A stretch of DNA of 57,165 nucleotides, filler included, from Jimgerdemannia flammicorona (taxonomy: Eukaryota): NCBI GenBank assembly GCA_003990765.1. It is 2 parts of 2 records of this genome, joined end to end, with 100 filler letters (N's around TTAATTAATTAA, not from the genome) between each part and the next. Parts side by side here need not be neighbours in the genome. Positions count along the whole stretch, not along the records: positions 1 to 28,542 come from RBNJ01000554.1; 1 more part is not named here. One strand, given 5' to 3'. The translations under genes were made by a program, and so were the position numbers. A model generated the notes under the pieces. The model was not told the origin of the DNA. It worked only from the letters and a program-made list of their open reading frames with translations, and did not search any database. Shown here piece by piece: positions 667 to 48,938 of this stretch (within the stretch, counting starts at the first letter, position 1; every line of letters begins with the position of its first letter).

Positions 667-2452
667 TGACAGGGTTAGGAGTGGGACCTAACAGAGAGCG
701 GATTTACTTAAGAGTGGTTTGTGGGTTATGAAATAGGTTTATTTGCTATTCATGATATTGCTATACTAGGAGTATTTGTGTGAAGGGGTATTGTGGGAAA
801 GTGCTCAGGAGTTGTGTTCGGATTGTTCAAGTCTTTCAAGTCTGAGATTCTGAGGTCCGGGGGAGGGGGTATTTATACTAGTGAGGGGCTATCTGGACTA
901 GGCTAGATATGGATGTAGCACTAAGTGCTTTGCTGAGTCAGAATGCAGTCACGTAGTACAAGTGTGATCTGAAATGTCAAGAGATTGTCTGACTGCTGAG
1001 TCAGTTCACAGTCACGTTGTACAAGGCTAATCTAACTATACTATGACTGCTAGACTATTTATAGGTTTAGGCACTATCTGGGTAGTCCTCGATGACATCA
1101 CCATCGGTTGCATCATCTCTGATGAAGTAGTTGTCTAGGAATAATGGTTCGCGGATTACTTCTCCTTATTGGCTGAGATAATAATACATTGGAACTTCAT
1201 CTCCGTCCCACAGGATAGCATCATCTATTTTGTATGCTGGATAAGGTGTTGGTGGGTGAAGGATGGGTGTACTGTCTTCGCTTTCATCGGATTCACTATC
1301 TGCGTACCTTCTATAGGTTACAGCACTATGAGTCGTGGGGTTGTAGTAAGCTGGCGGCTGTGGTTCAAGTCGCTTGTACTCAGGTGGTGGTGTTGTTGGT
1401 TCAATCTCGAGGGTTGTCTGGAGGTACAGGTTGTGCTCTCTGGTCTCTTCATTGTAGTTGAAGTAGTTGGGGGTGAACGCGGGTTGGTATTCGTGCCAGT
1501 GGTCATTGTCTCAATAAGTCTCGTATGCAGTTATGAACTGTTGTAAGTTCATCGGCAAGGTTGGTGGAGTGATCAGGGTTGGCAGAGATCCTTGGCTAGA
1601 GGTCATGTCGGCATCAGAGGGATCATTGTCTTCTGCTTCATCTTCGTCGAAGTGGATTATATTGTAGACGTCCTTTATGGCGTATCCGACTTGAGGCATT
1701 TGTAGGATATGGTCATCAGGGTGCGGGAAGGTTCTGTCTGTGGTTTTGACATACTCGAGGTACTTGTGGTTAAGTTCTTATATCATGTCATCGATTTGGC
1801 CATAGGACAGGGTAGCAACCATTTCACTGGTAGTGACTCGGAGGTGGGGAATAAAGGTGTTGTACTCGTAGAAGAGTTCTCGATGTTTGCGGGTGATGAG
1901 CTTCTGGTGTTGAGACATCTGGGTAATATCTGTATCGTGGTGGTGTTTGACCATGTCTTCTAAGAGGCGGCCAATCTGGTAGTAGCTTGAGATTTGTCCT
2001 ATTCGGTGGGCCTCGCTAAGTATGTTTAGGGCATTCCATCAGGCTTCCACGAAGTAGAGGGGTGCCAGGCTATAGATATTCATGAGGGGCAGAGGGGGTG
2101 TGGCTCGGTTGACAATGGCATTCCAAATGTCAGCACGGATGCGGTTGTAGATCTCAGTGGTCATGTTTGTGTGTTTGGAAGTTGTAGTTGTTGCTTGTTT
2201 TGGTTCTCTGATTCGATGCGTCTCGGTGCTCAGTATATATGCATTTGGTCCTGATTGGTAAGATTCTGTTGGTGTAGATCTTGTATTCCGTGACTTCGTA
2301 TTGACTCAGCTTTGTGCGCTGTGACTTCGGTTTGACTCAGCTTCGTGATCAAGCAGGTGATTTCCAGATTTGTTTGGAGGTCACGTGTGATTTCAGTGGC
2401 TTGTTCAGAGGGTGACGTATAATTTCAGTGGCTTGGAGGTTGTGCGCTTACA
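667..2452 (-). mobile_element. LTR (~1.8 kb) of gypsy element 1, with an internal ORF
   Basis: Minus strand starts TGTAAGCG at 2452, flanked by gtac. TATA-like tataaata near 869-876. Homologous to the decayed LTR at 2512-3164 + 18423-19242, which is preceded by a PPT. The 3' end (..TGTCA at 667) is approximate. Confidence 0.7.
1067..2164 (-). pseudogene. LTR-encoded ORF of unknown function (family 1), 366 codons with 4 internal stops
   Basis: Single frame MTTEIYNRIRADIWNAI...SSYYQIGRLL...FIPHLRVTTSEMVATLS...DVIEDYPDSA*. The internal stops are TGA/TAA, compatible with CGA/CAA C>T changes. Includes ORF 1511..1699. Confidence 0.65.
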
Positions 2453-2511
2453 GTACTAGTAAGAGAGTGAGATTTAACTTTTCTGCTACTACTAATTATA
2501 ATAAATATATA

Positions 2512-3164
2512 TATTATAGAGAATAATTATATTTATTAAAGTATGAGATTACTTTAATATAGTTAAGTCAGATGAAATCTAAAACTTAGACAATATACAT
2601 ATCAGCAAATGTTCAAATAGAAATATTTGATTAGATTTAAAGAATAGAACTTAGAAGGTTTAATTACCTTTAAGAGATTTAAGTAAAAATATAATAACTA
2701 ACTAGACTTACCTTTATTGAAGTATTCAGAGAGAATATTTATATAAGAGAAATAGAAAGAAAAAGAAATAAATAGAATATTACTAAGCTAGATAGTAAGC
2801 AATGAGTCATACTTGACAGAACTTAGTAGAATATTACAGAGAGTTACTAAGTATTGATTAATAATTGACAAAATCTTAGCTAAACTATTTAGGAAACAGG
2901 TTCTTAGCAAATAACTAAGTAATTCCATACTATTCTAAGCAATTCTGAAATGTTCTACTGAGTAATACATATGACAAAGAAAAGATAATAATTTAGAAAA
3001 AATAAAAATAGAATATAGAGGATTATTATACTATCTAGACTAGGCTTAATATAGATATAATACTTTAATATTTAATAAGTTAGAATATAGTTATATAGAA
3101 CTAACTAATCTAATTATACTAATGACTGCAAAGATAATTATAGATTTAGACACTGTTTAGATAT
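2512..3164 (-). mobile_element. Distal part of the decayed 3' LTR of gypsy element 4 (family-1-like), split by element 2
   Basis: 3120-3164 aligns with 1043-1084, and the alignment resumes at 18423. AT-rich C>T/G>A decay. The left boundary is approximate. Confidence 0.6.
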
Positions 3165-4678
3165 TGTAACAGTGACCCTAGAATTATGACAACAGTACAA
3201 GAGATATTCTTTTCTTACAAGCCACCAGATCAGAGCACAAGTAGATCATACAGTATATGAGATGAGCAATGATGACCAACTATGAGTTATTGTGACCACA
3301 GTATGGGTATCTTGAGGAATATAAAAGAAGGATTAAGGAACTACAGTAGCAGTAACCAATAAGACCCACCAATCTCAAAATAGCTCAAAGACTTACCACA
3401 AATAAAATGCCTGCTGCTCACCAAACCTCAAGGTCAAGAAATCACCAAGGTACCTCAGTTGAAGAAAGGATGTTCCAAGACATCAGAAGAGCCATGAGGA
3501 TCTACTCAAGAAAGACTCCTAGTATCAACCTGGGTACTAGTGACCCTTGTCATTATATCCTCTACTGTCATGAAATGGAAACAAGGATCACTATTGCTAC
3601 CAAATACCTCCAAATGTGGCAGGAGTATGAAATAGGAAATCTCCTCTACTGGGAGTTCCCATAGGCCAGCTCTCAAGAGTTACAAGATGTCACTCCCATA
3701 GATATATATGAAGTAAAGATAGCTAAGAAGATCCATCAGATCTTCAGGCATGCACCATGGTCAATCCCCAACTTGGAGTATATTAGAGTCTCAGATTTCA
3801 GAGACCTGTCATCCTGCTATATCAATGTACTAGAAACCAGGGTGGCTACAGAAGCCCAGTCCACTATTATCCTCAATAGTGATGAAGTAGAAGACTTCGG
3901 GCATCCCATCCTCCAGGACAACCCAGACCAATTCCTGCAAGGATTGATCTTAGTATTTCAAGGTCCAAGCATCCAGATTAGACCTCTCCAAGACCCTACA
4001 TTTGTCCCCTATTTTGTAGAAGAGAACCTCATAGACTGGAGAGCCCCAGACCTTCTTCTCACTACTACTAAATATGATGACATCATTGGCGATGATGTCA
4101 TCCTGTGTAATATTGAAGTATGTGAAATGTGCAATGATGATGAATTTGCAATCTCATCTCCTTCAGTGATGATGAGGATGAAGCCCCTATCATCTTGAAC
4201 ATTCTGCTCTAAAGTTCTTTAGTTATACTGAGTTATACCAGTACTGGCATTCTGATATAATACTGAGTTATGCCAGTACTAGTATTCTGATATAATACAG
4301 AATTATTCCAGCACCATTTTTCTGTACCACTATCAGTACCAACCCTGGAACTTAGCAGTTTTTCCTGTCCTGGCATATCATTTTAGTTATTGGAATTTAT
4401 ATTTAGCTTTATATCTTAGCAATCATTGAATTATATTTTGTATAAATACTCCTCTTATTTCCTTTAAAATAAAGTCAGTTCCAGTTCACTTATACACAAT
4501 CTCTTGCAAGCAATCTAAGAGATAACAAGATAGTTTAAAAATAAGAAGTTTGAGAACTATAAGACCTTAGGAAGACACTCCAATAAGAACTTGCTTATAA
4601 CAAACTTAAGTTAGTCTAAGAGATATACCTTGAAGAGAATCTGGCATATTTGAAGAACTCAGCAACTACTACTTGACA
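3165..4678 (+). repeat. 5' LTR of element 2
   Basis: Direct repeat of 10372-11086/17613-18422. TG...CA ends, TATA tataaata at 4441, aataaa near 4468, ~35-bp tandem repeats at 4222-4310. Confidence 0.93.
3407..4212 (+). pseudogene. LTR-encoded ORF of unknown function (family 2), ~268 codons
   Basis: ORFs 3407..3664 and 3773..4198 are in one frame separated by a TAG. Other copies (17613-17952, 41929-42156) give the C-terminus EDEAPxxLNILL*, implying a small frameshift near 4150. Confidence 0.75.
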
Positions 4679-4700
4679 ACTTGGTACTCATTGGCTGGTA
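4679..4700 (+). promoter_or_regulatory. Putative primer binding site
   Basis: act-TGGtactcattggctgg immediately after the LTR terminal CA. The cognate tRNA was not identified. Confidence 0.5.
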
Positions 4701-4734
4701 ATTTAAGATGAATCTCTCACTTTCAAGTTGAAAA

Positions 4735-5974
4735 ATGAACAACTCCCACAACAACTACTCTGACTACAAGTGTCACCCCTGCAAGAATTCAAGACAAGAT
4801 GGAAATACATCTCTCTACATTTTATAGATATACTACTGAAGAGTCAATTCTGACCTTCATTGAAGACTTAGAACAATTCGCTGCTATACAAGCCCTTGGT
4901 GTGGATGTACAATTGGCCCTTCTACCAGTCAGCCTCAGAGGATCTGCCAGAGATAAGTTCAATGCAGCTACTATTGCTGATAATGGTGCAGCCAAACTTA
5001 CCAACATGAAGGCCTTCCTCAGAACAACATACTATATTGAAGAGATCAAGCAAGCTCTCAAGGATCAACTCAACACTATCTGCAAGAGACTCAGTGAAGA
5101 TCCCAACTTATTCTATACCTGAATCTGCCACCAGATTGTCTTGGCTGGCTATGATGATGCCCTCAAGGAACAAATAGCAAATTCAACCTTCCTCAAAGGA
5201 GTTCACCCTGAAATTGCCCTAACAATCCAGTCTACCCCAGCTGCACTGACCCTTGATCAGAAAGTGGTCTTTGTACAGAGATATTGGACTGCCAGACACC
5301 CTGCCAAACACTCAATGGAGAAAATAACTAGTATCAAGATAGAGCCATCAAAGCCAACTAGTATCATACCTGCTATAGTAATAAACAAACAACCAACCCC
5401 ACTTATCTCCAAGGCAGCCAAAGCTGACTCAGTGGAGGAACTTGCCAAGCAGTTTGCCAAGATAACAGTATACCTTAGTGATGTTGTTAGAGAAGTCCAA
5501 AGTGCCAACAGGAGACCAGTGCAGAGATTTGCAGCTACTACAGAAGAATGCAATATCACATGCTTCAGATGTGGAGAAGAAGGCCACTATACAAAGAATT
5601 GCATGACCAAAACAAGATGCAAAACCCAACCAAGCAATGCTAGCAGAATCAGAGAACAAACTAATGCAGTAGTCATCGAGGAGATTGGTGATACTGATGA
5701 TGAAGAATACTATGAAAAGCTTGAATTCTACCCTGCTACTGAAGGTACTAGAACCTGGTCCAAGCCCTATAACAAGAAGAGCAACAGCAAGCCAGTTGGA
5801 AGACCAAAGAAGACCCCAGCTATTACTATTCAAAGCAAGACTCAACTCAAGGAGATTGATCAAGACATGGAGTTAGATGGAGCTGTCTGCCAAATCATTG
5901 AAGGTACTACTCCAGTCTCAGGAGAAAGTGAAAGCAAGAAGAAACAGAAGCTGTGCAAGACCAAGATCCACTAG
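4735..5974 (+). pseudogene. gag: gag (capsid plus CCHC zinc knuckle), disrupted
   Basis: ORFs 4799..5122 and 5141..5974. Knuckle CFRCGEEGHYTKNC. Confidence 0.85.
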
Positions 5975-6169
5975 TATGATATCTACAAGGACCTCAGTCA
6001 ATGCTACTTTTGGACAGCTAGCCAAAGTCCCTGCCTTCAGACAGCAGCTGAGAGTAGGACTTGTAACTACTGCCAAGAATCAAGAGTACAAGATTGTAGA
6101 AGCTCACAATGTATAGGAAGAATCTGAAAACTCAGGTGAAGAATCCAAAGAACAGCACAAGACATCAGC

Positions 6170-8818
6170 CTATATCTCATATCAGATCAAAGACTATATC
6201 TTTGATACCATTATTGATACCAGTGCTGGAGGATGCCTCATAAGCAAGAAGACAATTGACCATCTAGGCTAGGACATTGAAGAGTTCACCAAGATGGTCT
6301 ATATTACAGCAGATGGTATACGAGCTACCCTCCTTGGCAAAATCTGAGAAGTCTCCATTAAGATAGGAGGAGCTACCATCTCAGTAGATGTGATTGTTAT
6401 AAGTACCACCAACTATGACATTCTCATTGGCAACCAATGGCTTCATAAGGTCAAGGCCATCATTGACCTCAATGCCCAGAAGATGCAGATCAACTATAGA
6501 GGAAGAAAGGTATGAGTCTCTATCAATGTCCACAAAGGAGTCCTACCAGACATAGAGGAAGGAGATGAAGAGAACACAGAGGTCTTCATGCACTCAGTGA
6601 ACAAGAACAAGAACAAGAACAAGACACCTAAGCTCACAGATGAGCAGTGGTACAACAAGATCATCAATAGCTATGCCTCTCAAGGAAGATGCCCCCATGG
6701 TACTAGGATGTACTGCTCTGAACACCTGAATGACTGCTGGTCCTATATCAGTGAAGTCAGGAAAATCCGCCAACAGAAACATGAGCAAGAAGCCACCAAA
6801 GTAAAACGGAAAGCCAAAGATTATGACCAGCCCCCAGAGCTTCAAGCTGACAGTAATGATGAGGAGGAACAAGAACCAGATATCACCCTTAAGGTCAAGA
6901 AGTTCTACCCTAAAGCCAAGATCCCAGAATATAAGACTGAAGGAGCCATAGAAATAGATCTTGCCAGCATTGAAGATGCTACTCTGAAACCACAGACCAC
7001 TATCCTACTTAGCACTGGAATTGGAGTCAATCTGCCAGAGAACCATGCCAGAATTATCAAGACCAGGAGCAGTCTGGCCAAAAGTGAAATCTCAGTTGAA
7101 GGAGGAGTAATTGACCCTGATTATACTGGTAAGATCTTCCTTATAGTCAGAAATCACAACCCTACCACCCCATTCAAAGTCAAGAAGTATGACAGGATTG
7201 GCCAGATGCTGATCCATAAAATCAAGAAACCCAAGATTGCTGAAGCCATTGAACTCATCAAGACTAAGAGAGGAGAACAAGGCTTTGAATCTACTAGAAG
7301 AGGAGCCTATGTCACCACCAAGATCACTAAACTTGAGCATAAGAAAAATAAGGATCAGAATAAGCACACATATACTATTGGAGAAAACTTTCCCCTAAAA
7401 GAACAACTTCTCAAGATCCTGCACCAGAATGAAGGAGTACTTGCTACAGACTTCTGGGATATCTATAATCAAGAACCCAAGTACTATTACAAAGTTGACA
7501 CTGGTGATACCAAGCCCATCTACCAGAAAGCCAGACCCATACCACCTGCCAACAGAGAATGGCTGTGAGCAGAACTCAAGGAATTGGAAGAAGCCAGAAT
7601 CATCAAGCAAGCTATCAGTCCCTGGGCTTCACCCATTGTCCTTGCCCCAAAGAAAGGAAGCAAACCTGGAGAGTTTGCACCAAGATACTGCATTGACTAC
7701 AGGAAGCTCAATGCCATCACCAAGAAGGATAAGCAGCCCTTGCCAAATATTCAAGAAATCCTTACCACTCTTGGAAGTGAAGCCAAATACTATACCACCT
7801 TGAATCTGTTCTCAGGCTTCCATCAGATTAGTCTCACTCAAGATACCAGTGAGAAATCAGCCTTCATCACACCTAATGCCACCTATATCTATCTGTAAAT
7901 ACCATTTGGAATGTGCAATGCCCCAGCAAGTTTCCAGCAAATGATGAACAGAGTCTTCAGCAATGAGATTGGAAAATGGCTCTTCATCTATATTGATAAT
8001 GTGATCATCTTCAGTAACACTACACAGGAACATATCAATCACATACAGCTAGCCCTCAAGAAGCTCAAGGATCATGGCCTCTACATCAAGCCTAAGAAAT
8101 ACAAGTTTGCAGCCCAGGAATTTGCCTACCTAGGACACCTCATCAACCAGACCAGAATCCACACAGACTCCATAAAGATTGAGGCTGTTGCAGCCTACCT
8201 GAGACCCAGAACAACCATAGAAGTCCATGCCTTCCTTGGACTGGCCAGCTACTATAGAATATTTATCAAAGGATACTCTAACATTACAGTACATATCTAC
8301 GAGCTACTGAAGAAGGAAACCAAATTTGAATAGACCAAGGAATGCCAAGAAACCTTCAATGAACTCAAGACCAGGTTGATCCAAGCACTATCCTCAGAAG
8401 ACCAGATTGGAACCTAGAATTCATCCTGCAGACAGATGTGGGTACTATAGGACTTGGAGCAGTCCTAGCTCAGAAGAAAGATGAACATGAATATGTCATA
8501 TCCTATGCAAGCCAAGGTACCTATGGAGCAGAACAGAACTACAAGCCATGCAAGCTCGAATGCTTAGCAGTAGTTTGGGCAGTAGACAAGTTCCACTACT
8601 ACTTAGCTGGGAAACACTTCACCATTCAAACAGACTATTCCGCTCTTGCCTGGCTATTCCACACTCTGAACCCCAAAGGAATATATGCCAAATAGATCTA
8701 CAGGCTGCAAGAGAATGACTGTACTATCAAGCACCACTCAGGAAGAACCAACACCAATGCTGATATACTCTTAAGGACACTCCGAAACACTCTCATCAAA
8801 ATTACTCAACATGAATAA
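6170..8818 (+). pseudogene. pol: pol: aspartic protease, dUTPase, reverse transcriptase, RNase H (stops and frameshifts)
   Basis: PR IIDTSAG (~6210). RT SPWASPIVL, CIDYRKLN, PFGMCNAPASFQ, YIDN (decayed YxDD). RH GLGAVLAQ, KLECLAVVWAV, TDYSAL. Confidence 0.92.
6880..7305 (+). pseudogene. dut: dUTPase domain between protease and RT
   Basis: In ORF 6588..7568: EIDL, TRSSLA, GGVIDPDYTGKI, DRIGQML, RGEQGFEST, matching trimeric dUTPase motifs 1-5. Confidence 0.9.
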
Positions 8819-10058
8819 GGAGTTATACTATGGATTGATCAGCTACCTTGAGCAGCAGAAGATGCTCAACCACCTTGAACCCTGGACAATCACCATCATC
8901 AACTGAACTTGGAAACAGTTTGAACTAGACAACACTACACTCAGAAAAGGAGGAAAGCTAGTAGTACCCAAATACAAGAAGTATCAAGTAATGAAGGAAG
9001 TATATGAGCAAGGATATCTAGGAAGAACAAACACATATGACAAGGCAAGAAGAACCATGTGGTGGCCCAAGATAGAAGAAGACCTGTACCAATTTATCAA
9101 AGGGTGTGACAAGTGCCAAAAACAGAAACAAGATCAGCAAGACCAGGCACCCAAGTCATCAAGAATTGAGCCTATCCCCTTCCACTACATCACAATAGAT
9201 ATAATTGGGCTACTACCAGTAATTCTATCATAAAATAACTATATTATAGTTATTATAAACCTCTTTACCAAATGGATAGAAGCAGGAGCAATACAAGAAG
9301 CCAATGCCCTCTCTATAGCTGACTTTCTGTACTGAGAAATTATCTGCTGCTACAAGACACTGAAGAAAATCACAACAGACCATAGCACAGAATTTGTTAA
9401 TGGATTCCATGATATAATGTATCAGAAATACAAGATCCAGTATATCAAGACCACTGCATATCACTCTCAAGGAAATGGACAGACAGAGAGAACCAATAAG
9501 ACCCTCAAGAACATCCTGGTAAAGATCTCAGAGATATATGAGAAATGAGATAACTATCTTCCAACTGCTCTCTCTGTCCTATGAGATATATGGTCACAGA
9601 GCACATACTTTACCCCAAGAGAACTGCTCTTTGGAGAAGAAGATTCTGATGTAACCTCAGTCACAAGTCTAGACCTAACTTGGAGATAGGTTGATGCAGA
9701 AATCCAAAGACTACACCAAATCAGAATGAAGGCTGAAGATTACATCATCAAGTCACAAGCACTGACAAGAAAGAATGCAGAAAAGAATCACAAGACTCTA
9801 GAATCCATCCAAATTGAAGAAAAGGTCCTACTGTATTGAAATATGGTAGAAGCCTCATGGTCATGAAAACTGAAGCCCAAATGAGAAAGACCCTTCTACA
9901 TGCAAGATATCAAGAGAACTACCTTCTGGCTTAGAAAAATCTCAGAGACCATACTGCCTACTACAGTACATAGAAACAGACTCAAGAAGTACCATGAACC
10001 TATAAAAGAGAAGCAAAATATAATGACCACCCATGAGGTTCTAGTCTGCAAATTGTAA
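8811..10058 (+). pseudogene. Integrase, as a separate ORF starting MNKELYYGL
   Basis: ATG 8811 is in frame with ORF 8991..9233 (WWPKIEED, CDKCQ, IDIIG). Later motifs: ITTDHSTEF, TAYHSQGNGQTER, decayed GPY/F motif, VHRNRLKKY. Confidence 0.85.
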
Positions 10059-10371
10059 CAGCATGTCCTGTGACCAGCAGGCTATCTGTCTGGACCAATC
10101 TCTAAGGGATATAGCACTAGCAACTACTCATCCATGAGACTTTCAAAACCAGAGGAGTTTGAACTGTCAACTGATTGGTCAAGATCAGAATCAAGCCCTT
10201 ACTCTATATGAAGGGAGCAACCCTTTACCATTACACCAAAATACAAAGAGAAGACACCAGTCCATAAATACCACTTTTCGACCCCTTGTTAGAGGTTATG
10301 GGATCAGCAAATTTTTCAAGACTGGACTAATAAATAAGGATGCTTGAGAAGATCCTTATTCAGGAGGAAAA

Positions 10372-11086
10372 TATAACAGTGACCCCAGAATGATGACATC
10401 AGTACAAGAGACAGCCTTTCCTTACAAGCCACCAGATCAGAGCACAAGCAGATCATACAGTATATGAGATGAGCAATGATGACCAACTATGACTCATTGT
10501 GACCACAGTATGGGTATCTTGAGGAATATAAAAGAAGGATCAAGGAACTGTAGTAGCAGTAACCAATAAGACCCACCAATTCCAAAATAGCTCAAAGACT
10601 TACCACAAACAAAATGTCTGCTACTTGCCAAACCTCAAGGTCAAGGAACTACCAAGACACCTCAGTTGAAGAAAGGATGTTCCAAGACATCAAAAGAGCC
10701 ATGAGGACCCGCTCAAGAAGGACTCCTAGTATCAACCTGGGTACTGATGACCCTTATCATTATATCCTCTACTACTATGAAATGGAAACAAGGAGCACCA
10801 TTGCTATCAAATGCCTCCAAATATAGCAGAAGTATGAAATAGGAAACCTTCTCTGCTGGGAGTTCCCACAGGCCAGCCCTCAAGAGTTACAAGATGTCAC
10901 TCCCATGGATATATATGAAGTAAGGATAGCTAAAAAGATCCATCAGATCTTCAGACATGTACCATAGTTGATCCCCAACTTGGAGTATATTAGAATCTCA
11001 GATTTTAGAGACCTGTCATTCCACTGTATCAATGTACTAGAAACCAGAGTGACTACAGAAGCCCAGTCCACTATCACTCTCAATAG
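10372..11086 (+). repeat. 3' LTR of element 2, left part
   Basis: Matches 3165-3879. Interrupted by the hAT insertion. Confidence 0.93.
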
Positions 11087-11189
11087 TAGTGCTCTGAATG
11101 AGTCAATTCAAATCAAATCTGGATTTGATTTGTCACATGATGGTTTGATCCGAATCTCAAATCTGAAGCCATCCGAATCAACTTGGATT

Positions 11190-11440
11190 AATCCAAATCA
11201 CCCCATCCAAATCACCCCATCCAAATCACTCATCCGAACCACTCCAATCTGAATCACTCAATCCGAATCACTCAATCTGAATTACTCAATCTGAATTACT
11301 CAATCTCAATCACTCAATCCGAATCACTCAATCTGAATCCTCCAATTCAAATCCTCCAATTCAAATTCTCCAATTCAAATCCTTCAATCTGAATTCTCAT
11401 CCAAATTCTTCAACCGAATCCTCCAATCCAAATCCTCCAC
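11190..11440 (+). repeat. hAT subterminal array of ~15-bp units (aatccgaatcactc-like)
   Basis: Visible tandem aatc(c/t)gaat(c/t)actc units. Related gatc/aatc motifs occur at the right end (17480-17600). Confidence 0.85.
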
Positions 11441-14261: not shown

Positions 14262-14915
14262 AAGTGGGCAGCAGTTGGCAGGGTTGGCAGCAGCGGCAGA
14301 GGGAGCGTGCAATATTTGTGGCCCTCTACCAGTAGCAAGGGGCAGCCCCAAGCTGTCAGTGCCCAGGTCGGTGGGTGGGTCAGCAGAGGGAGCATGCAAA
14401 ATTTGCAGCCCTCTGCTAGCAGCAAGGGGCAGCCCCAAGCTACAAGTGTCCTGGTCAGAGAGGTTGGCAGAGGGAGCATGCAAAACTTATGGTCCTCTAC
14501 CAGCAGTGAGGGACAGCCCCAAGCTGTCAGCACCCAGATCAGTGGGTGGGATTGGTGGGCATGGGGTTGGTAGAGGGAGTATGCAAAATTTGCAGCCCTC
14601 TGCCAGTAGTAAGGGGCAGCTCCAAGCCGCAAGTGTCTGGGACAGGTGGGGCAGGTGGAGGGAGCATGTAAAATTTGCAGCTCTCTGCCAGCAGCAAGGG
14701 GTAGCCCCAAGCTGTCAGCACCCAGGTCAGTGAGTGGGGTTGGTTGGCAGGGTTGGTGGGCACAGGGTCAGCAAGGGAGCATGCAAAATTTGCAGCCCTC
14801 TGCTGGCAGCAAGGGGCAGCCCCAAGCTGCAAGTGTCTGGGATGGGTGGGGCAGGTGGAGGGAGTACACAAAATTTGCAGCCCTCCACCAGTGGCATAGG
14901 GGCAGCCCAAGCCAC
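14262..14915. repeat. GC-rich minisatellite inside the hAT
   Basis: About 7 units with core gagggagcatgcaaaatttgcagccctctgccagcagcaaggggcagccccaagctg and two alternating tail types. Confidence 0.9.
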
Positions 14916-15177
14916 CAAGGAGTCCGGGGCAGAGGGTGCTTCTGGCAGTCAGAGGGTGCTTCTGGTGGTCGGAGGGTGCTTCTGGCAGTTGGAGGGCATT
15001 TTTGGCAGTTGAAGTCCATCACAGATTTGGGCCCCATCACCAGTTTGGGTCCCATGGGCACCCTGGCCCTGTGCCACAGCACTGCACCGGTAGCACTGCA
15101 GAGCAGAGCCAAGGGGCTGGTAGGGCCCTGCATAACGGCTAAGCTAGTACTACAGATGAGGTAACCCCCAACATAAG

Positions 15178-15268
15178 ACTGCCTAACCTGCACAAAATGA
15201 CTGCCTAACCCTCATGAAAGACTGCCTATCTCTCACAAAAGATTGCCTAACCCTTACAAAAACTGCTC
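15178..15268. repeat. 4-5 tandem ~21-bp units actgcctaaccctcacaaaag
   Basis: Seen directly, at the 3' end of the minus-strand passenger gene. Confidence 0.8.
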
Positions 15269-17150
15269 CAACCACTAGTCCTAGGCCTTGATGAGCCTAT
15301 CATCTGTTGTGAGTGTGATGACTGTTGTGTCTGAGCTCTCCTTGAAGGTGACAGTACCATAGTGGTCATGTGGTTGGAAGAGGATGGCCATGTTGGCCGC
15401 AAACAGGACCCTGAAACCATAGGTGAGGTCATACCAGACTCTGCTGCTATCCTCTCAGGTTGGGCCCTTCCTTTCCAGGATGTAAAATATTACCAGGGTG
15501 ATATTGTTGTCTGTATATGTAGGCAGAGAAAGGTTGTGCCCGACATATCCTGATGTGATGCAAGCATACAGTTTGGTGAACCCTTGGCACAGGACCTCAT
15601 ACTACTAGGCTGTGCTGGTGGATGCCTGCTCTTGGTCCAGCGCTGGGAGCCCTGGCTTGGAAACCTGCCAAAACGGATGACAACCAGTCAGTCCTTTTTG
15701 CGTGCAGGGGGGCAGAAACCCCCCAGGCCACAGAAACCCCCTGGGCTGCAGAAACCCCCTGGGCTACAGCACCCCCAAAAAAGCAGAGCTCCTCACCTCA
15801 TACAGTATACTAAATTATACCAAGAATGTATGTACAGCCATACTGAGATCACCACTAAGCTGGCCTACTGCATACTCTACCAATCTGCTCAAAGAACCCC
15901 CAGATCATAGCCACCATCACCACACAGGTCATGTCATGCTTGTGCGCAGTTTGCTCTTTGACAGTATTTCTAAAGTTCTAGTAGGGGTATAGAATCTTGT
16001 ATATCCCTGGATTTGTATCCAAAAGAGTATGTCGGTGAAGAGTGTGATTTATCTGGGAAGGAGTAAAAAAAAAGGGAGACAAGTGTGGGGGATTTGAGAA
16101 CTCCAGAACCCACCCTTTGCCAGTGTTGCAGTATATCCAATTCCTGTCCAAACTCCCCCTCCTTGCTTTTTTCACCCCCTCTTTCCTACAACTCAGTATT
16201 TGATGCAATCCTTGCAAATCTCATTGATGTGGTGGTGAAGCTCATCACCATAGAGGTTCCTTACCACCATCACAACCACCTCTCTACATTTGTTAATAAA
16301 GATATGGTTCTTTTTGTCATTGGTTACTCCTACTGGCCAATGGACCTCTTGGTTAAGAACAATTGGCTCTGATTTGAATGTAGACCCCCAAGCCTTGATG
16401 ATGATACTGGTACTACTCATGCTGAACATCTTGCCCTCAAATTTCTCTATTTGATTAGATACTAGACATGGTTGAACTCAGGTAACTTTGAACTCTTCTT
16501 TCCAATGGAACTGAGCTCTGATCTGAGGGACCGAGATAAGTGTGTAGACAGGTTGCATGCAGATGGGTTGCATATGGATGGGTTGTGTGCAGGCGAGTTG
16601 TATGTGGGTTGGTTGCATGTAGGTGTGGGTGTTTTTTAGGGGAAGACCATGTAAAAAATAAAATTAAATAAAACATAGAGATGGGTATTTCAGAAAAAGA
16701 GTATGAGTGAGTGAGTGAGTGAGTGAGCTACATGCTGACAAGTTGCATGCTGATAAGTTGCACAAGTTGCACAAGATTGCTCATGAAGGCTTGCTTCTGT
16801 TCCTTTTGAGACCTCTACCACACGATACATTGACTTAACAGCTCAGCCACCAAAGGCATGCTCTGCAATGTCCTCCAACCTTTCTTCATCTTGACCAGAT
16901 GTTGTGAATAAAGTCAGCAGATCTCACCATAGAGCTGTGGACCCTAAGAAGAGAACAAGGTGAATTGGGTTGTGCTGGGGGAATTTAAACAAGTAAAAAG
17001 TAGTGGCAGAAAAGAGCAACCTACATTTACTACTGGCTGCTCCAAAAAGGCTGCCATGTATAGCTGTGAGGTCTGTGAATTCTGAGGTCTGAAGGGCTGC
17101 CGTAAGTTGTTGCTGGAATTCACCCTCATTTCTGCCATCATCATTGCATT
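15254..17150 (-). pseudogene. Multi-exon passenger gene, probable 2OG-Fe(II) dioxygenase (TET/JBP-like)
   Basis: Last exon 15664-15254 reads ...LPT[Y<H]TDNNITLVIFY...WYDLTYGFRVLFAANMAILFQPHDH[Y<H]GT. Upstream exons give VVMVVRNLYGDEL and TYSFGYK. Motif recognition by eye only. Confidence 0.5.
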
Positions 17151-17612
17151 GCCATCACCACTACCATCACCCCTTTGGCTCTTGATGAGCAGCTTATGTG
17201 CTACCCATATGAGAAAAAATCTAACATTGTCAGCAGAGAGTGTATTTCCACCTTGAATACTCCTTCTTTTGATGATTATTGCAGGGTGAAAAATGAGTTG
17301 ACTGGACCAACATATGAATTAAGGACTGCTGTTTTGTTTCCTCATGATGTGGTAGGAAAGAACAAAGAAAAATAACAAAGAAAAGAGAGAGAACAAAGGA
17401 AAGAGTGATGTCACCAAAGTGTGGTAGGAAAAAAAAAACAAGAATGAAATGAACAAAAGAAAGAGTGATGTCACTAAAGATTTCAATCCGGATGGATCAA
17501 TCTGGATCAATTTGGATCAGATCACGAGACCAATCCAAGTTGATTCGAATCCATTATATGATGAACCTGAATCAAATCTCATCCAGATCAACTCCATTCG
17601 TTCAGAGTACTA

Positions 17613-18422
17613 CTCAATAGTGATGAAGTAGAAGATTTCTGGCATCCCATCCTCCAGGACAACCTAGACCAATTCCTGCAAGGATTGATCTCAGTATTCC
17701 AAGGCCCAAGCATCTAGGTTAGACCTTCCCAAGACCCCACATTTCTCCTATTTTGTGGAAGAGAACCTCATAGACTAGAGAGCCCTAGACCTCTTTTCTG
17801 CTGCTGCTGAATGTGATGATATCATTGGTGATGATGTCATCTCATGTGACATTGAAGTATGTGAAATGTGCAATGATAATGAATTCACAGATCTCATCTC
17901 CTTCAGTGACAATGAGGATGAAGCCCCTATGGTCTTGAACATTCTGCTCTAAAGTTCTTTGGTTACACTGAGTTATGCCAGCATCAGCATTCTGATATAA
18001 TACTGAGTTATGTATACCAGTACTGGTATTCTGATATAATACTGAATTATTCTAGCACCATTTTCCTGTACCACCATTAGTGCTGACCCTGGAACTTAGT
18101 AGTTTTTCCTGTCCTGGCATTTCATTTTAGTTATTGGAATTTATATTTAGCTTTATATCTTAGCAACCATTGAATTATATTTTATATAAATACTCCTCTT
18201 ATTTCCTTTTAAATAAAGTCAGTTTCAGTTTACTTACACACAATCTCTTGCAAGCAATCTAAGAGATAACAAGACAGTTTAAAGATAAGAAGTTTGAGGA
18301 CTATAAGATCTTAGGAAGGCACTCTAATAAGAACTTACTTATAACAAACTTGAGTTAGTCTAAGAGATACACCTTGAGGAGAATCTGATATATTTGAAGA
18401 ACTCAGCAACCACTACATGATA
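17613..18422 (+). repeat. 3' LTR of element 2, right part
   Basis: Matches 3872-4678. Ends tgata (decayed TGACA), followed by atat. Confidence 0.93.
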
Positions 18423-21400
18423 ATATATATTTCTCAATAAGATTACTATTGATAATATTATCTCTAATAAAGTAGTCATCTAGAAAGAGTGGTTCTTAGA
18501 TTATATCTCTTGATTTATTTATATAGTAGTATGTTAGAATGAAGTAATCATCTTATAGGATGGTATTATCTATCTCATATACTGAATATAGTATTAGTGA
18601 GTAGAGAAGAGATATGTTATCTTCACTTTCTCAGATTTGCTATCAGTGTATCTTTAGTAGATTATAGTACTACAAATTATAAGATTATAGTAAACTAGAG
18701 ATTATTCTTTATATTGCTCATACTCAGAAGATAGAGTTATTAGTTCAATCTCAAGAGTTATTTAGTGATATAGCTTATATTCTCTTGTCTCTTCATTATA
18801 GTTGAAGTAGTTAGATATAAATATAGATTGATACTTATACTAGTAGTTATTATTCTAATAGGTCTTATAGATAGTTATAAACTATTATAAGTCTATTGAT
18901 TAAGTTAATAGAGTGATCAGAGTTGGCAGAGATTCTTGGCTAGAGGATTTCTTAGTGTTAGAGATATTGTTGTCTTCTATTTTATCATCATCAAACTATA
19001 TTATATTATAGATGTTCTTTATAGTATATAGTTGTTATTTAGTTTGTGATAATTCTCTATTTTGATATATTGTATACTAGGTACATATATCTTTAATCTT
19101 AATTGGTAAGAGTTTGTTTTTATGAGTCTTATATGTATTTTGTAACTTTGAGTTAACTTAGCTTTATGATCTTATATGTGATTTCTGGATTTATTCTGAG
19201 AATGATATATAATTTCAGTAGTTTAGAGATTGTATACTTATAACTCTCTTTTTTTGTTTTGTTTTTGATATCTTTGTTAAGTTCTTCTAACTTAATCTAG
19301 TATTATTATATTATTTAGATAGTCAAAAGACCTTTTTTTCAGAAAGTAGTATACTTATAGTATAGTTGCCTAACATATTAAATTCATATATTAAAGAGTT
19401 ATATATTCAATACTATATACCAGAAGTAATTATGATGTCATTCACTACTGGAGAATTTCCTCTAAGGAATCTGTTTAAATGTTTATACCTCACTTTCCAC
19501 CAGTGATATAGAGAGAATAGACTGACTTTCAGTTATGCTTTTTTTATTTTTATTTTTATTTTTTTTTTTAGAAAACTAGTATTCTTCTATCTTAATTTTG
19601 CTAAGAGTGTAGCAGAGTTTTTAATTTATTTGTAATAATTATAAGAGTGCTTAATAGTATTTAGGAGGAGTAATATATATAATATAGCAATGGTTAATAT
19701 AGGAGTACTTTAACTAGTTTTTCAAAGAATTATATTCTTGAACTAAGTTAGTAGTATTCTAGAGATTTGTTCTGAATTTCTATATAGCATTATGGATTGA
19801 TAACCTTTCTATTTGATAAGGTATTCTGGATAATTCTTGTAGCTATATTTGTTGAGAATTTGTTCAACTTTGTATTTATTATAATCATTATATAATAATG
19901 ACAGATGCTGGTGGTTTTATAGTCTAATTTGGAAATCATTCATTGTTATTTTCATTATATTACTTAAAATATTAAATATTGAAGACTGGGTGAATTTTGA
20001 TAGTATCTAATAGAGCTAGTTTATAGAATATTAGAGAAATCTGTATAATAACTTCAAATAGTCTGATGAACTTACTGTTTAATATTATAAAAGATCTGTA
20101 CTTGAGGTTATCAACTCAGTATCCTTAGATATCTAGTAGAACTTTTTTACTGACATTAAAAGATTCTTCTTGGTAGTACTAGTTAATATACTGAGATTGT
20201 TGGTTTTGGGCTTGAGATAGATTCTCAATTGTAATTTGGCTCAAGTTGTATATCAGAGTAGAAATTCTTCAATAGCTTCAATAATAGAGATTTTATTTAT
20301 AGTTCTGATAAGAGTCAGATAGGTGTTTAGATTTTGTCCTATATTAGTAAAGAATAAGATTATTCTAAGTGAAGCTTGTTTGCTATTATTATAGATAAAC
20401 TCAACTGCAGTAAGGTATTCATACTAATTATCTTATTTATATAAAATATAGTTTCTTAGTATCTAGGGTTCAGTTTATTCTTTCAGTTTGGCTATCAGTT
20501 TTAAGATAAAAGACTATAGAGGTACTAGTTTCATTCTAAGTTATGAGTGTAGAGCTTTTCAAAAATAACTAGTGAATTTTTGATCTTGTTCACTAATAAT
20601 TATCTTAGAAAGACTATAATAATAGAAGATGTTATTAAGTAGAAGAGTGGTAATTTCAGATACTATTGCAGTTATAGTAGTAAGTATGAAGTAGGCTTAT
20701 TTGCTAAGATAATCTATGAAGAAAATAATAGCATCCTTTCTGTTCTTGATTTAGGATAGTTATATAATGAAGTCTAGAGAAATTTTTTTTCAATTAGTAG
20801 ATAGTACTGAAATAGAATAGTAGTCTAGGTTATGTAAGATTGAGGACTTATTGCATTAGTAGATATTATAACAAAGTGTCCTTCATGTGAAATGTATATG
20901 AGATGTATTATGCTTAATTGAGTGTGCTGATATAAGCTGAGTCGATGGGTTTGGTGAATATGGAAGTATGTACTTCCCAGGCCTACTATTCATATAAAGC
21001 GAAGAGGCTGCACATTTATTGTTCCTTCTCCAAAAGAGAAGGGCAGGATGGATTGCATAAACTAATTGCAGGAACTAATTAAGTATACAGGTGTAGTCTA
21101 TATGCTTGATTGTTAAGATGTGATACATACTCAGTCACTTAGAGAGATATTACATATAATGCATACTGAAACATTGCTAAGCTATTTGCCACTGACATCT
21201 TGCCAGGGAACTGAGACTAGGCTAACATTGTATAAGAAACTGCACAATGGGAACTGAGACTGAGCTAAGATTGCATAAGAAATGGTGTGGCAGGAAACTG
21301 ACACTAAGCTAAGATTGTATGAAAGACCTAAAAGATTGCATGATAGTGGTTTTTCTATGGCTTTGGCCACTTTGCCGAAGTTTGAGCTATGTTCATAACT

Positions 21401-23203
21401 CTAAGAAGTGATATAGGTTTTCAACTAGTTTGCCATATAGAGTCAATAGAAGTTTTGAGAGATAACTTTATAATATTTATTAAATCCTAAATGTCTAGCT
21501 GTTGGAGCATTATAATATTTAAACAGAATAGTTCTTTGAAGATCATAATTGTTAGAGATATACAATCTGTCCTTATAATAGATAGTTTTATTCTTTAATT
21601 AGTATTGATGATACTGAGAATATTTACTGATATCCTAATTACTCAGGATTTTCTGAAGTGCTTGAGCTTCTTTATTATCAGTATATACTGTAATAATTTG
21701 TTCTATAATGGAATTGATAACTAAGGTGAGAGTTTATATAACTTCTTTAATTGATGATCTAGAGATAGTATCAGTAATACTATTTTTTTTACCATAATAG
21801 TATTGGATTTTATAGTTGAAATTGGTGAGAACTTTCATCTATCTAGCTTACTTTCAGGAAAGAGTAGTCTGGGTCTTGATATTGATCAATTTTTTATAGT
21901 CTATTAATACAGTAAAGTATGCTTCTTTGAGATATATATAGATACTATTTAATCAGGGTGTCTACAATAGCTAGTATTTTTTTCTCATAGGTGGCATAAT
22001 TGATCTTGATACATATTATTAAACTTATAAGAGTAATAGGCCACAGAATATCTCTTATATAAATACTACTCTAAGAGCTAGGTCAGAGATATCAGCAGTA
22101 ACTTCATATAGCAGAGCAAGATTTTTAGCTTAAAGTACTGGAGTAGTTATCAGGATATCTTTTAAGACTTAAAAGGCTGTATTTTATTCCAGTCTCTATT
22201 TAATAAAGTTGTTAAAATCTTTTTCTTACTTTGTTATCAAGAGTTGTTCTTCTTTTTTACTATACTTAGTCAGTTAGGGGAAAATAGTAGCAATCTTAGC
22301 AAAGTTTACAGTAATAATTTGCTAATTCTAGGAATAACTGAAGGTCTTTAAGCTTCTTAGGTCGGGCCCATTTCTTGATTATAAAGATTTTGCTAGAATC
22401 TAATATAATTTTATTAAGAGAGGCAATATGTCTAAAGAATTAAATTTCCTTTAGAAGAAATTCACATTTACTAAGTTTTGCATAAAGTTGATTTTTCTAA
22501 AGCTTCAGGAGTACTAGTTCAAAATATTCAAGATATTCCTCTAGGGTTTTACTGAAGACTAGAATATTATCAATATAGATAATAATAAATTTATCTAGAT
22601 AAGAGTACAGGATAGTATTTATCAGAGTCTGGAAGGTTGTGAGAGTATTAGTTAAACTAAAGAGCATAACTAAGAACTCAAAATGTTTATAATAAGTTCT
22701 GAAGGCAGTTTTGTAGATATCTTCTTTCTTTATAGCAATTTGCCAATAATTATTTCATAGGTCAAAAGAGCTCATGAATTGTAGATTGATAAGTCTGTTA
22801 AAGATTTTATCAATTTGAGATAATGAACAATAGTTCTTGATAGTCTATTCATTGAGATCTTAATAATTAATATATATTTGAAGGTCTCTTCCTTTCTTGA
22901 TGATAAAGAGAACTAATACACTAAATAGTAATATACTAGATCTAATGAATTCTTATTCTAGGAGTTCATTTATCTCTTTCTTGAGTATGTTAATTTCTCT
23001 AGAAAATATATAGTAGATTGACTTGAAGGTTGGTTTGACACCTGATATGGTCTTGATTATATAGTCAACTACTCATTTAGATAGTAGCTCTTTGAGATAT
23101 TCTTGAAAATATATCTCAAAATTTTTAAAGTAGAGATCTTACATGACTATTAACTTTGGAAAAATCTTCTTTAAGATTCTCTAGTTCTCCTTTGAATAGA
23201 TAT
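18423..23203 (-). mobile_element. Heavily decayed Ty3/gypsy element 4 (RT-RH-IN remnants, PPT, proximal 3' LTR 18423-19242)
   Basis: Minus frames give DIYKTAFRT, YIDNILVFS (RT, ~22560-22720) and IISEQDQKF (IN, ~20580-20610). A purine tract at 19243-19260 abuts the LTR start, which is homologous to 2452. Confidence 0.75.
20867..21397. mobile_element. Probable solo LTR or small insertion within the integrase remnant
   Basis: Less decayed ~530-bp block with decayed TG..CA-like ends and three ggaactgagactaggctaa-like repeats. No clean TSD. Confidence 0.45.
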
Positions 23204-23531: not shown

Positions 23532-24249
23532 TTGACTCATTCGGTTGTTCAACGATAGTGGCTCAATTGTTTAGTAGATAAGGGCATTCCTGGCGGCAAT
23601 TAACTTGGCAGCGAACTTGAATTTATGCGGCAATGGCCTTGGCTTTAAGCGGTTTGTGGTGCCATAGGTCGGGAATCAGTCGATGGCTTGCTCATCCGTC
23701 TTGACTTGTTAACTTGAAAGGGCAAGATAACTTGGGTCTTTGGTGGTCATTTGAGTATCTTGGCAGTGGGTCGGTCTTTGGCGGTCTAGTATCCTTTGGC
23801 TGGGTGTCCTTGGGTTTCTGGGTCTTGAATCTCGAGTGGCGGTCAAATGGCGGTGGTCCGAATGGTGGTCTGAATGCACGGAGGTCATAGTCTTGAATCC
23901 TTGGCTGGGTCTCGGGTCTCGAATGGCGGTGGTCAGGTAACATTTTCTTTTCGTAGCAAGAGAAAATTCTTTAACTCAAACTTCTGAGTGATCCATTGCT
24001 CTAGGTTGTTATCTTGTTCTCAGAATTTATCTGGTCTCTTGGAGGCAGTGAAGTTTCTCGGTAATTCCTTTTTACTTTTAAACACAAACTGGCTGAGGTT
24101 TATTCACTCTAAGAATATGGGTTATTTATACAAGTTTGCTAGCTATGGGCGCGGCTAAGGTATACTATATTGTGGCAAACATTTGCTATGCTATTGGCTT
24201 GCATGATGTGAGGTGCAGGCTATTGTTTACTACAGATTGGGTTATAGGG

Positions 24250-24515
24250 GATAGCAATGCTGAATTTGGACCTGCTGACAAGATGCTGAAAATGGTGGTA
24301 CTGAGTAGCAACACTGGATTCAGATGAGCTGACATGATATGATGATTGTTGCCAGAAGCGGTTGTGGAGGGTGGCAACACTGAATTCAGACCTGCTGACA
24401 AAAATGCTGAAAACAGTGGTACTGGGTAGCAATGCTGGAAATGGACTTGCTGACAAAAATGCTGAAAACGGTGGTACTGGGTAGCAATGCTGGAAACAGA
24501 CTTGCTGACAAAAGC
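24250..24515. repeat. ~55-bp tandem repeats in U3 of the element 3 LTR
   Basis: Repeated tgctgacaaaaatgctgaaaac(a/g)gtggtactgggtagcaatgctggaaa. Confidence 0.85.
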
Positions 24516-24607
24516 CGGGTTCTCATGGCTGATGAGCGGTACTCTAGAGGGAATAGTACCCTTTGTCTATGGCAGGCAAATCTTGCTGGGTTGTGATTTC
24601 TTCTTCA

Positions 24608-25534
24608 TCATATGTATCTCTCCTCAAAGGGGGGAAGCACTGGCCAAGAGGTGAGGGGGTAGAAAAGTGGCCAGTCATCTTCAACAACATTTTCCAGTCC
24701 CTGAATTGCTTGAATGTGGACAGAGGACTGGTAGACTCTCTGTTGCTCCTCTTCTTCTTCTGAAGACTCGTCAGTTTCAGTGTCAGAGGGGGTTTCTTCA
24801 GGGGCAGGGCCTTGGAGTTCTTGGGCCTCCTCTTCAAAGACAGGAACCTCTTGGGCTTCTTCTTGATTCGGTTCCCAAATGATGAGGTGTGAATTGTGGC
24901 TGACAAGGTGGTGGGTGGTTGGGGTAGCTCCAATGGGTGCTTCTATGGTAATGGGCGGTCCTTCAAATATCTCCATAAGACTCATTAGGTGACCTTGATG
25001 GTTGTCTCGGAGTGGGGTGGTGTGGAAACCTGGCTGAGTAGGTTTGGTTTGTTGGCTTCCTATAGCGATGCAGTTGCTGCCAATAGCATTGACTACTTCA
25101 GATTCTATCCAGTCAGCATCTTCAGTTGAAAGGCAGGAGAGGCTGCCAGCCATTACTCCTTGCAAGTATGCTATGACCCAGGGAATATGGTGGAAGATTT
25201 GGTGGACACGGAGGGCTCTCTTGATTAGCCGGCTAGTGGTTATCAATTCAGTAATAAGGCCTTCCCAGTCGTCTTCTTGAGTCTCATTGCAAAGGCGGTA
25301 TCTGATTTCGTAGTCATGCCAGAGGGTCATTCGTTCAGTAGTGTCTTTGAGCTATTGGGTCATGATATACTGGTAGTTGATGAAGTGTCCAAGGTCCTCG
25401 GTGTAGAAGTTCAAGTGTTCGGAAGTATCTGGGTGCCAGATGGCCTTCTTAATAGCTTCAAAGATCAGGGTCTTTGGACCAGGCAAAGGGGTAGAGTGGC
25501 GGGAGGTCTGGTTGGTTTGGCGAATGGGAGGCAT
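24608..25534 (-). pseudogene. LTR-encoded ORF of unknown function (family 3), 309 codons with one internal TAG
   Basis: ORFs 25352..25573 and 24608..25330 are in frame: MPPIRQT...LWHDYEIRYRL...RVHQIFHHIPWVIAYL, then an acidic tail. Confidence 0.8.

Positions 25535-48897: not shown

Positions 48898-48938
<41 letters not shown>

Follow-up and report, generated by a model that had tools for sequence, protein, structure and literature searches.

Can the long terminal repeat (LTR) of a gypsy retrotransposon be a gene in itself? LTR retrotransposons are usually described as gag-pol between purely regulatory LTRs, and accessory genes, above all genes within U3, are regarded as a hallmark of complex retroviruses. 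The question is raised by a stretch of 57,165 nucleotides from Jimgerdemannia flammicorona (assembly GCA_003990765.1), which we analysed as a whole and call the window. A first-pass annotation of this DNA had reported an open reading frame (ORF) within the LTRs of three gypsy families (elements 1, 2 and 3), and we refer to these frames as E1, E2 and E3. Our analysis indicates that they belong to a previously undescribed protein family of about 270-365 amino acids, encoded in the U3 of the long LTRs of at least three Ty3/gypsy lineages in one genome, and we put the probability of this reading at about 0.75. The structural and evolutionary statement behind it is quite likely, while the mechanism that we propose, a transactivator of the element's own promoter, is tentative.

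Reading frames in the long LTRs

The reading frames found in LTRs of the window are the following.

1067..2164, minus strand: E1-type LTR ORF (P0003), 365 codons with 4 in-frame stops
3407..4212, plus strand: E2-type LTR ORF (P0001 = 3407-4195), with a TAG at 3662-3664, a frameshift near 4150 and the original stop at 4210-4212
24608..25534, minus strand: E3-type LTR ORF (P0002), 308 codons with 1 in-frame TAG
~17620-17950, plus strand: rest of the ORF copy in the element 2 3' LTR, spread over at least two frames
42768-42055, minus strand: ORF copy in a related LTR, with 12 in-frame stops and the start codon lost

The ORF coordinates and peptide motifs of the first-pass annotation were present as quoted, except that the peptide given as KHRELLYEY actually reads KHRELFYEY and that no frame is open from end to end. 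In E2 the frameshift near 4150 hides the original C-terminus, which ended at 4212. The frames are nevertheless far from random. In E1, E2 and E3 the sense frame holds 4, 1 and 1 stops, whereas the other two frames of the sense strand hold 11-28. None of 2000 composition-preserving shuffles of each stretch had as few stops as the sense frame.

The LTRs that carry these frames were delimited as follows.

381..2452, minus strand: element 1 5' LTR, ~2.07 kb, start TGTAAGCGCAC at 2452, end CTCTTACA (CA) at 381
3165..4678, plus strand: element 2 5' LTR, 1514 nt, TG...CA, start TGTAACAG, end TTGACA
10372..11087, plus strand: first part of the element 2 3' LTR, with a TATA at 10527 and an ORF copy from 10614
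17620..18423, plus strand: second part of the element 2 3' LTR, beyond a hAT insertion, with TATAAATA at 18185 and AATAAA at 18212
18424..19242, minus strand: copy B of the E1-type LTR, mutated by repeat-induced point mutation (RIP), split by element 2 and continuing from 3164 to ~2457
23900..25742, minus strand: element 3 3' LTR, of which only the start is fixed, the end coordinate being nominal
41440..43017, minus strand: LTR of a related element, ~74% identical in nucleotides to the element 2 LTR

Element 2 gives the clearest limits. Its 5' LTR is repeated in direct orientation, with ~90% identity, as 10372-11087 and 17620-18423, the ends of the 3' copy carrying transitions. The 5' LTR is followed by AC and then by a TGG primer-binding site (TGGTACTCATT at 4682), while the polypurine tract AGGAGGAAAA (10362-10371) adjoins the 3' LTR. 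ATAT, a possible target-site duplication, flanks the element on both sides (3161-3164 and 18424-18427), within AT-rich, RIP-mutated DNA. In element 3, a polypurine tract (AAGGGGCAGA, 25752-25743) downstream of the integrase adjoins TGTGACG at 25742, which sets the LTR start. The ATG follows 208 nt after that start, and the ORF is enclosed on one side by the polypurine-tract/TG start and on the other by the block formed by TATAAATA, the main TATA motif, and AATAAA. The LTR of element 1 is followed by AC and then by TGGTAGCAGCAG at 377-366, which resembles an initiator-tRNA primer-binding site. The CA end together with AC and TGGTAGCAGCAG identifies it as a 5' LTR whose element extends beyond the window.

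All three ORFs thus sit inside the LTRs, in sense and in U3 upstream of the main TATA box, as the first-pass annotation had it. The coordinates it gave for the LTRs are those of the ORFs, and the true LTRs are larger (~1.5-2.1 kb). Its remark that the three LTRs share no obvious DNA similarity agrees with blastn among them, which gave no alignment (word size 11, E 1e-10, at least 100 nt); only the short TATAAATA/AATAAA core aligns. The LTRs share a plan instead: ~145-215 nt, a TATA-like box, a leader, ATG, the ORF, repeats, TATAAATA, AATAAA and U5.

The three host elements, to judge from their sequences, are divergent gypsy lineages. Elements 2 and 3 are 41-50% identical in reverse transcriptase (RT), RNase H and integrase, and an RT remnant near copy B shares 27-30% identity with the RTs of both, a figure deflated by RIP.

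E2 and E3 are clearly related (BLASTP 2e-14, 26% identity over 199 residues; 7.6e-12 by tblastn against the window). Searches of a 5.8-billion-protein set with the three ORFs returned 3, 6 and 1 public matches, and a profile search of 1.84 billion representatives returned 12 at E up to 1e-3, half of them at E up to 1e-10. Among the relatives are intact proteins of 271, 325 and 342 residues, and distant members such as P0021 and P0023. Intact public proteins of 247-271 residues match the E2 ORF at 69-76% identity, and an intact one of 325 residues matches the E3 ORF at 77%.

DNA collections were scanned with a 9-sequence alignment as the query, by pattern match and then tblastn. In the metagenome scan 54 stretches matched the pattern, three passed tblastn and one was accepted. 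This contig, L001, carries an intact 323-residue ORF in the same layout of TATA, ORF, TATAAATA and AATAAA. The other two were rejected, L002 as a 15-residue chance match and L003 for the bacterial ORFs on its stretch. None of 152 pattern-matching stretches from viral contigs was related, and the 31 from prokaryote genomes held only the same 15-residue chance match, in one bacterial genome.

Selection was estimated for the E2-type lineages, from the DNA of the E2-type window copies and L001, as omega (the ratio of non-synonymous to synonymous change, dN/dS) by the Nei-Gojobori method and as differences per codon position. Between lineages, E2 and L001 differ at 90, 63 and 136 first, second and third codon positions, and omega is 0.14, an approximate value because synonymous sites are saturated (pS 0.72). 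E2 and the copy at 42 kb differ at 60, 45 and 93 positions (omega 0.22). The 5' and 3' LTRs of element 2, which have diverged since insertion, differ at 12, 20 and 16 positions, with omega 0.61. A third-over-first-over-second pattern between lineages, set against a flat one within a single insertion, is to be expected of an active gene under purifying selection. On this codon evidence, the coding sequence has been under purifying selection between E2-type lineages. As all window copies are broken, the selection belongs to the history of the family and not to these copies. The proposal of an accessory gene under selection and carried by every LTR is supported by profile similarity, dN/dS and LTR boundaries alike, none of which refuted it.

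Fold, family limits and proposed LTR transcription

AlphaFold2, run with the family alignment on the whole protein, built an all-helical domain at residues ~15-165 (predicted local distance difference test, pLDDT, 78-98 over the block). The N-terminal domain modelled alone reached a mean pLDDT of 83.7 and a predicted template modelling score (pTM) of 0.76. Beyond it come a conserved stretch of short length (DNPDQFLQGL..F.GP) and then a small hairpin, after which pLDDT drops below 50 and the tail is predicted to be disordered. The tails are acidic, as had been noted from the sequence, with 20-30% Asp plus Glu, a net charge of -14 to -33 and 15-20% Trp, Phe, Tyr and Leu. The E1-type tail is also modelled as disordered (ESM Atlas model of P0013, pLDDT 0.39). 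According to these models, the shared architecture is a folded all-helical N-terminal domain of ~135 residues and then an acidic disordered tail rich in aromatics and leucine.

No known family or fold matched significantly. Pfam gave nothing above threshold for the three ORFs and 16 family members. At E up to 10 no family was common to the 16, and the only matches were four single-member chance ones. A match to the bovine lentivirus Vif (Lenti_VIF_2) was rejected, as its score in one of the 16 members, 13.1 bits (E 0.061), fell short of the cut-off of 22. The sequence search of the PDB returned only two chance matches to ATP-synthase b-subunits (E 1.9 and 5.3). Foldseek found no match at E up to 1e-3 for either model among PDB and viral models, the top viral-model match being a DUF3102 protein (E 0.29), and P0015 had no match at 0.9 or above in the ESM Atlas. 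As the fold is confidently predicted and has no significant match, a solved structure would be of value. We also considered a secreted effector and rejected it, since the sequences, judged by eye, have no hydrophobic N-terminal stretch.

VIA-align reached a Z of 4.3 at best with the N-terminal domain and of 3.9 with the whole model, and all structural matches lie below the tool's own noise level (Z under 8). For the N-terminal domain, the 50 rows listed include 8 DNA-binding domains of the ParB/SopB/KorB/VirB group, ranks 1-3 among them, at Z 2.7-4.3 (SopB 4.3 and 4.1, VirB 3.9, P1 ParB 3.6, KorB 3.3 and 3.1, Spo0J 3.0, ParB 2.7). The first SopB match superimposes 80 residues of the model region 69-154 with a root-mean-square deviation of 4.5. 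We treat this faint ParB/KorB-like resemblance as a lead and not as a finding.

Acidic tails rich in bulky hydrophobic residues are typical of activation domains. Taken with a possibly DNA-binding helical domain, such a tail led us to prefer a regulator of LTR transcription. Tentatively, the protein may be a nuclear regulator whose helical domain binds the LTR and whose acidic tail activates the genomic promoter. The two promoters would then form an early/late circuit like that of foamy-virus Tas. It is a more doubtful step to see in these fungal gypsy elements "complex retrotransposons" whose LTR is the gene for a transactivator of its own genomic promoter, with a ParB/KorB-like domain for sequence-specific DNA binding and an acidic tail. 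If that were true, the gene would persist in solo LTRs, and the genome would contain scattered trans-acting activators that could reawaken silent relatives.

The protein might instead act after transcription or against host defence, in RNA export or packaging like Rev or Cer1 CERV, or as a suppressor of silencing. The basic N-terminus would suit such a role, as would the hydrophobic, leucine-rich end of the tail in the E2 type (...LNFLL) and the lack of a significant DNA-binding match, and accessory export factors do occur in LTR retrotransposons, according to the accessible text of PMC10309623. On the other hand, Pfam gave no match to an RNA-binding domain or to a known suppressor, the three types differ in their terminal motifs, and the weak structural matches favour DNA-binding helix-turn-helix domains. 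We regard a post-transcriptional or anti-defence role as possible but doubtful.

How far the family extends is a separate matter. The first-pass annotation had aligned the N-termini of all three ORFs. For E2 and E3 this shared domain is strongly supported, and for E1 the support is moderate. The pairwise BLASTP scores of E1 are borderline and not significant (E 0.058 and 0.61), its C-terminal two thirds share nothing with the other proteins, and its N-terminal domain is present in one element 1 sequence only. These facts would also fit two unrelated families of LTR ORFs, E1 resembling the others through composition and helical propensity, and the 66% probability given by hhalign leaves room for that. 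The same hhalign comparison, however, runs over 118 collinear columns (E 5.8e-5), and against a 17-sequence profile E1 scores 19.7 bits, whereas 5000 shuffles reached 8.4 at most and unrelated ORFs of the window 4.3 or less. When the window was searched with the profile in six frames, the E1 site (2167-1784) was the sole match with an i-E below 1 besides the known E2 and E3 copies. Weak pairwise matches of E1 to four family members fall in the same register, and E1 has the same position in its LTR and the same layout of TATA, leader and ATG. Two unrelated families are thus unlikely. We take E1, with slight doubt, as a distant member by sequence through its N-terminal ~120 residues, to which the likeness is confined. 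Its long C-terminal part is unrelated to E2 and E3 and is kept in copy B and in the public protein P0013, to which residues 115-365 are 64% identical.

We then come to how such an ORF would be expressed. The signals in the LTRs are listed below.

3320..3327, plus strand: upstream TATA of element 2, TATAAAAG, 87 nt before the ATG
25597-25589, minus strand: upstream TATA-like motif of element 3, TATTTAAAG
2240-2233, minus strand: upstream TATA-like motif of element 1, ATATATAC
4225..4324, plus strand: tandem repeats of element 2, 35 nt x 2.5, between the ORF stop and the main promoter
24513-24387, minus strand: tandem repeats of element 3, 55 nt x 2.3, downstream of the ORF
4441-4448 and 4468-4473, plus strand: core promoter TATAAATA and AATAAA of element 2, taken as the U3/R border
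24130-24123 and 24104-24099, minus strand: TATAAATA and AATAAA of element 3
877-870 and 743-738, minus strand: main TATAAATA and AATAAA of element 1

Each ORF has a TATA-like motif of its own, as had been reported, 55-87 nt before the ATG in all three elements. The leader between motif and ORF is free of ATG, rich in A and C and 53-77 nt long, and the ATG has an A at -3. The element 1 LTR, in place of tandem repeats, has two TGACTCAGCA motifs (containing TGACTCA) upstream of the main TATA at 930-1010 on the minus strand. TGAGTCA/TGACTCA is the Gcn4/AP-1 site. Further upstream on the same strand (2300-2450), before the first TATA, the element 1 LTR also holds paired repeats (GCCACTGAAAT... twice and GCTGAGTCAA...GAAGTCAC twice).

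From these motifs we propose that the upstream TATA would start a monocistronic mRNA of ~1.1-1.2 kb for the LTR ORF, which would end at the AATAAA of the same LTR. The second TATA would be the genomic promoter, and this would place the ORF within U3. In elements 2 and 3, TATAAATA lies ~25 nt before AATAAA, so that genomic RNA would be without the signal at the 5' end and have it at the 3' end, an arrangement classical for retroviruses. The LTR would then be a self-contained gene, copied to both ends at each retrotransposition and surviving in solo LTRs.

The same motifs can be read in another way. If the upstream TATA were itself the genomic promoter, the ORF would lie in a very long R/U5 leader and would be the first cistron of the element, an "ORF0". 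Some plant elements, Retrosat2 among them, are known to have an extra ORF ahead of gag (accessible text of PMC3485330), the leaders have no upstream ATG, and the upstream TATA is strongly kept, GAATATAAAAG and the 20 nt preceding the ATG being invariant in all four E2-type copies, L001 included. But R would need to be ~1.1 kb long, and the AATAAA between the ORF and the primer-binding site would end RNAs inside the 5' LTR. Moreover, TATAAATA and AATAAA form one block, the sole non-coding stretch kept across the otherwise unalignable LTRs of E2, E3 and L001, with tandem, enhancer-like repeats just upstream of it. An ORF0 is improbable on these grounds, and we keep to the reading of an ORF in U3 under its own promoter.

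The view that the frames play no part in the life cycle of the elements, being relics in decay or products of chance on a strand rich in A and C, is largely refuted, since the compositional skew of the sense strand and the damage to six of six window copies are outweighed by the shuffles, by a codon pattern of purifying selection found between lineages and absent within one insertion, and by intact ORFs that persist in relatives down to ~25-30% identity.

Several points weigh against our reading as a whole. All six copies in the window are dead, through RIP-type stops, frameshifts, transposon insertion or deletion. The family is very sparse in public data, where most relatives are seen without genomic context. 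E1 was linked to it from one sequence and with moderate statistics. Omega, besides the saturation mentioned above, was computed with CpG and RIP-prone sites included. The layout is not identical in all three LTRs, the spacing between TATAAATA and AATAAA in element 1 being 127 nt, and the two start sites, like the poly(A) site, are placed from sequence motifs only. As to mechanism, DNA binding would have to be accepted with no match in Pfam, PDB sequences or Foldseek and with structural scores at noise level.

Host elements and RIP-like mutation in the window

The window has a GC content of 41.7% and contains nested transposable elements, which were resolved by self-comparison and Pfam scans.

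4679..10371, plus strand: element 2 internal region, with gag including a zinc knuckle, dUTPase, RT, RNase H and integrase (Pfam), degraded by stops
26572-28524, minus strand: element 3 integrase (26850-26572), RNase H and RT (Pfam)
22904-22311, minus strand: degraded RT remnant, ~3 kb upstream of the E1-type LTR copy B
11088-17619: hAT-like DNA transposon, ~6.5 kb, inside the ORF of the element 2 3' LTR

The Pfam order in element 2 (zf-CCHC, dUTPase, RVT_1, RT_RNaseH, Integrase_H2C2, rve) is that of Ty3/gypsy elements (Metaviridae). Its dUTPase is unambiguous (E 5.7e-25, window 6516-7565) and lies upstream of RT; the Pfam scan found no match to a protease model and no chromodomain after the integrase. 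Just upstream of the element 3 RT are two runs of 44 N (28543-28586 and 28599-28642), so that the 5' half and the 5' LTR of this element are not traceable. Another fragment of RT is present at 29723-30271, minus strand.

The hAT-like transposon is bounded by terminal inverted repeats (TAGTGCTCTGAA / TAGTACTCTGAA) and an 8-bp target duplication, CTCAATAG (11080-11087 and 17612-17619). Its match to the hAT dimerisation domain is weak (13822-14730, E 4e-4, just under the Pfam cut-off). The middle is GC-rich (56%), and there are internal tandem repeats at 14274-14937.

Copy B shares the TGTAAGCGCAC-type start with the element 1 LTR, directly after a purine run at 19242, and the RT remnant at 22904-22311 probably belongs to the old element of which copy B was the 3' LTR. 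A primer-binding-site-like sequence ~35 nt before the end of copy B was discarded, because the alignment places it inside the LTR. Copy B is a deletion derivative, with its 5' leader joined almost directly to ORF codon ~161 (window 18424-19100). Its ORF thus has no codons 1-160, and the conserved N-terminal domain is gone while the tail-coding part is kept. The end of copy B, CTCTCTTACTA, is only 4 nt (GTAC) from the start of the unmutated copy A, the element 1 LTR (window 2452-2460). At this head-to-tail LTR-LTR junction the mutation load changes sharply. The junction is either a later insertion exactly beside an old LTR end or a tandem or circle-junction relic.

Compared with copy A, copy B has 248 mismatches, of which 169 are C-to-T or G-to-A, and 72% of its CpA and 70% of its CpG sites are mutated. 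This pattern is a RIP-like signature and points to a host that is probably a RIP-competent fungus. The six ORF copies of the window died mostly through such C-to-T and G-to-A changes. Several of their stops occupy positions at which intact relatives have Gln or Trp codons, which fits damage of this type. AT-rich blocks are seen at 18000-23000 and 47000-53000, with 23-31% GC compared with 42-57% elsewhere.

The rest of the window is marked by a repeat of several kb in three copies of 74-81% identity (30095-34510, 36917-41328 and, inverted, 56083-52838), two of which are 6.8 kb apart. It has long ORFs on both strands (up to 424 residues), which had no Pfam match. Between 29 and 47 kb the GC skew takes extreme values (-0.35 to -0.57), and the inverted copy mirrors it with a positive skew.

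LTR-borne and accessory genes in known elements

The closest system by position is the sag gene of mouse mammary tumour virus (MMTV). It encodes a superantigen in a sense ORF of ~300 codons, which is contained in U3 and stops a short way before the main TATA, in an LTR of more than 1.2 kb. The family described here likewise has its ORF within the U3 of an unusually long LTR, and hence a copy in every LTR. The resemblance is positional only, as there is no relation in sequence or fold and no Pfam match among the 16 members. The host element is also of another kind, a retrotransposon without env and probably fungal. Sag is a type II membrane glycoprotein, whereas the protein here shows neither a signal nor a membrane segment and seems to be nuclear or cytosolic. 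Finally, sag is reached by splicing, while the LTR ORF here would need its own promoter.

Foamy-virus Tas (Bel1) is the functional analogy that we propose. Its gene lies between env and the 3' LTR, is served by an internal promoter in env, and encodes a protein with an acidic C-terminal region. In both cases an accessory regulator with an acidic C-terminus would be made from a separate upstream promoter and would act back on the LTR. Unlike Tas, the whole unit here is inside the LTR, and no similarity was detected.

If our reading is correct, such complexity arose outside vertebrate retroviruses, and solo LTRs may be protein-coding genes rather than inert scars. The ORFs are almost absent from protein databases, which makes them a matter for genome annotation. 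To the study of transposable elements they would add a tractable new candidate for a regulator, either of retrotransposon activity or of how this interacts with RIP and silencing.

Among retrotransposons, the additional ORFs (aORFs) of plants are the nearest parallel. Grande gene23 and the aORFs of RIRE2, Retand and Retrosat2 (ORF0) are lineage-specific, some are nuclear and some have their own promoter, according to the accessible parts of PMC7264820 and PMC3485330. As described there, they are internal. Some sit between pol and the 3' LTR, often in antisense, and others precede gag, whereas the ORFs here are in the LTR, and there is no sequence relation. In the accessible text of the review PMC7264820 the phrases "in the LTR" and "within the LTR" do not occur. 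A limited search of the open-access literature (PMC7264820, PMC3485330, PMC5408684, PMC10787394, PMC12037069 and PMC2864245 among others), in the text accessible and short of proof of absence, turned up no LTR retrotransposon outside the retroviruses with a protein ORF in its LTR. A figure legend in PMC2864245 names an "add. ORF", whose position relative to the LTR is not readable from the text. Internal promoters have a precedent in the Oikopleura Tor elements (accessible text of PMC4402516).

The host elements, too, have known counterparts. Some gypsy elements of basidiomycetes and Tuber, PosPlaTy3-5 and Tmt1 among them, are described as having a dUTPase placed between protease and RT (accessible text of PMC2864245), and the dUTPase of element 2 likewise lies between the protease region and RT. 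Accessory genes borne by an LTR are known, while their presence in fungal-type gypsy elements and the protein family that they encode appear to be new.

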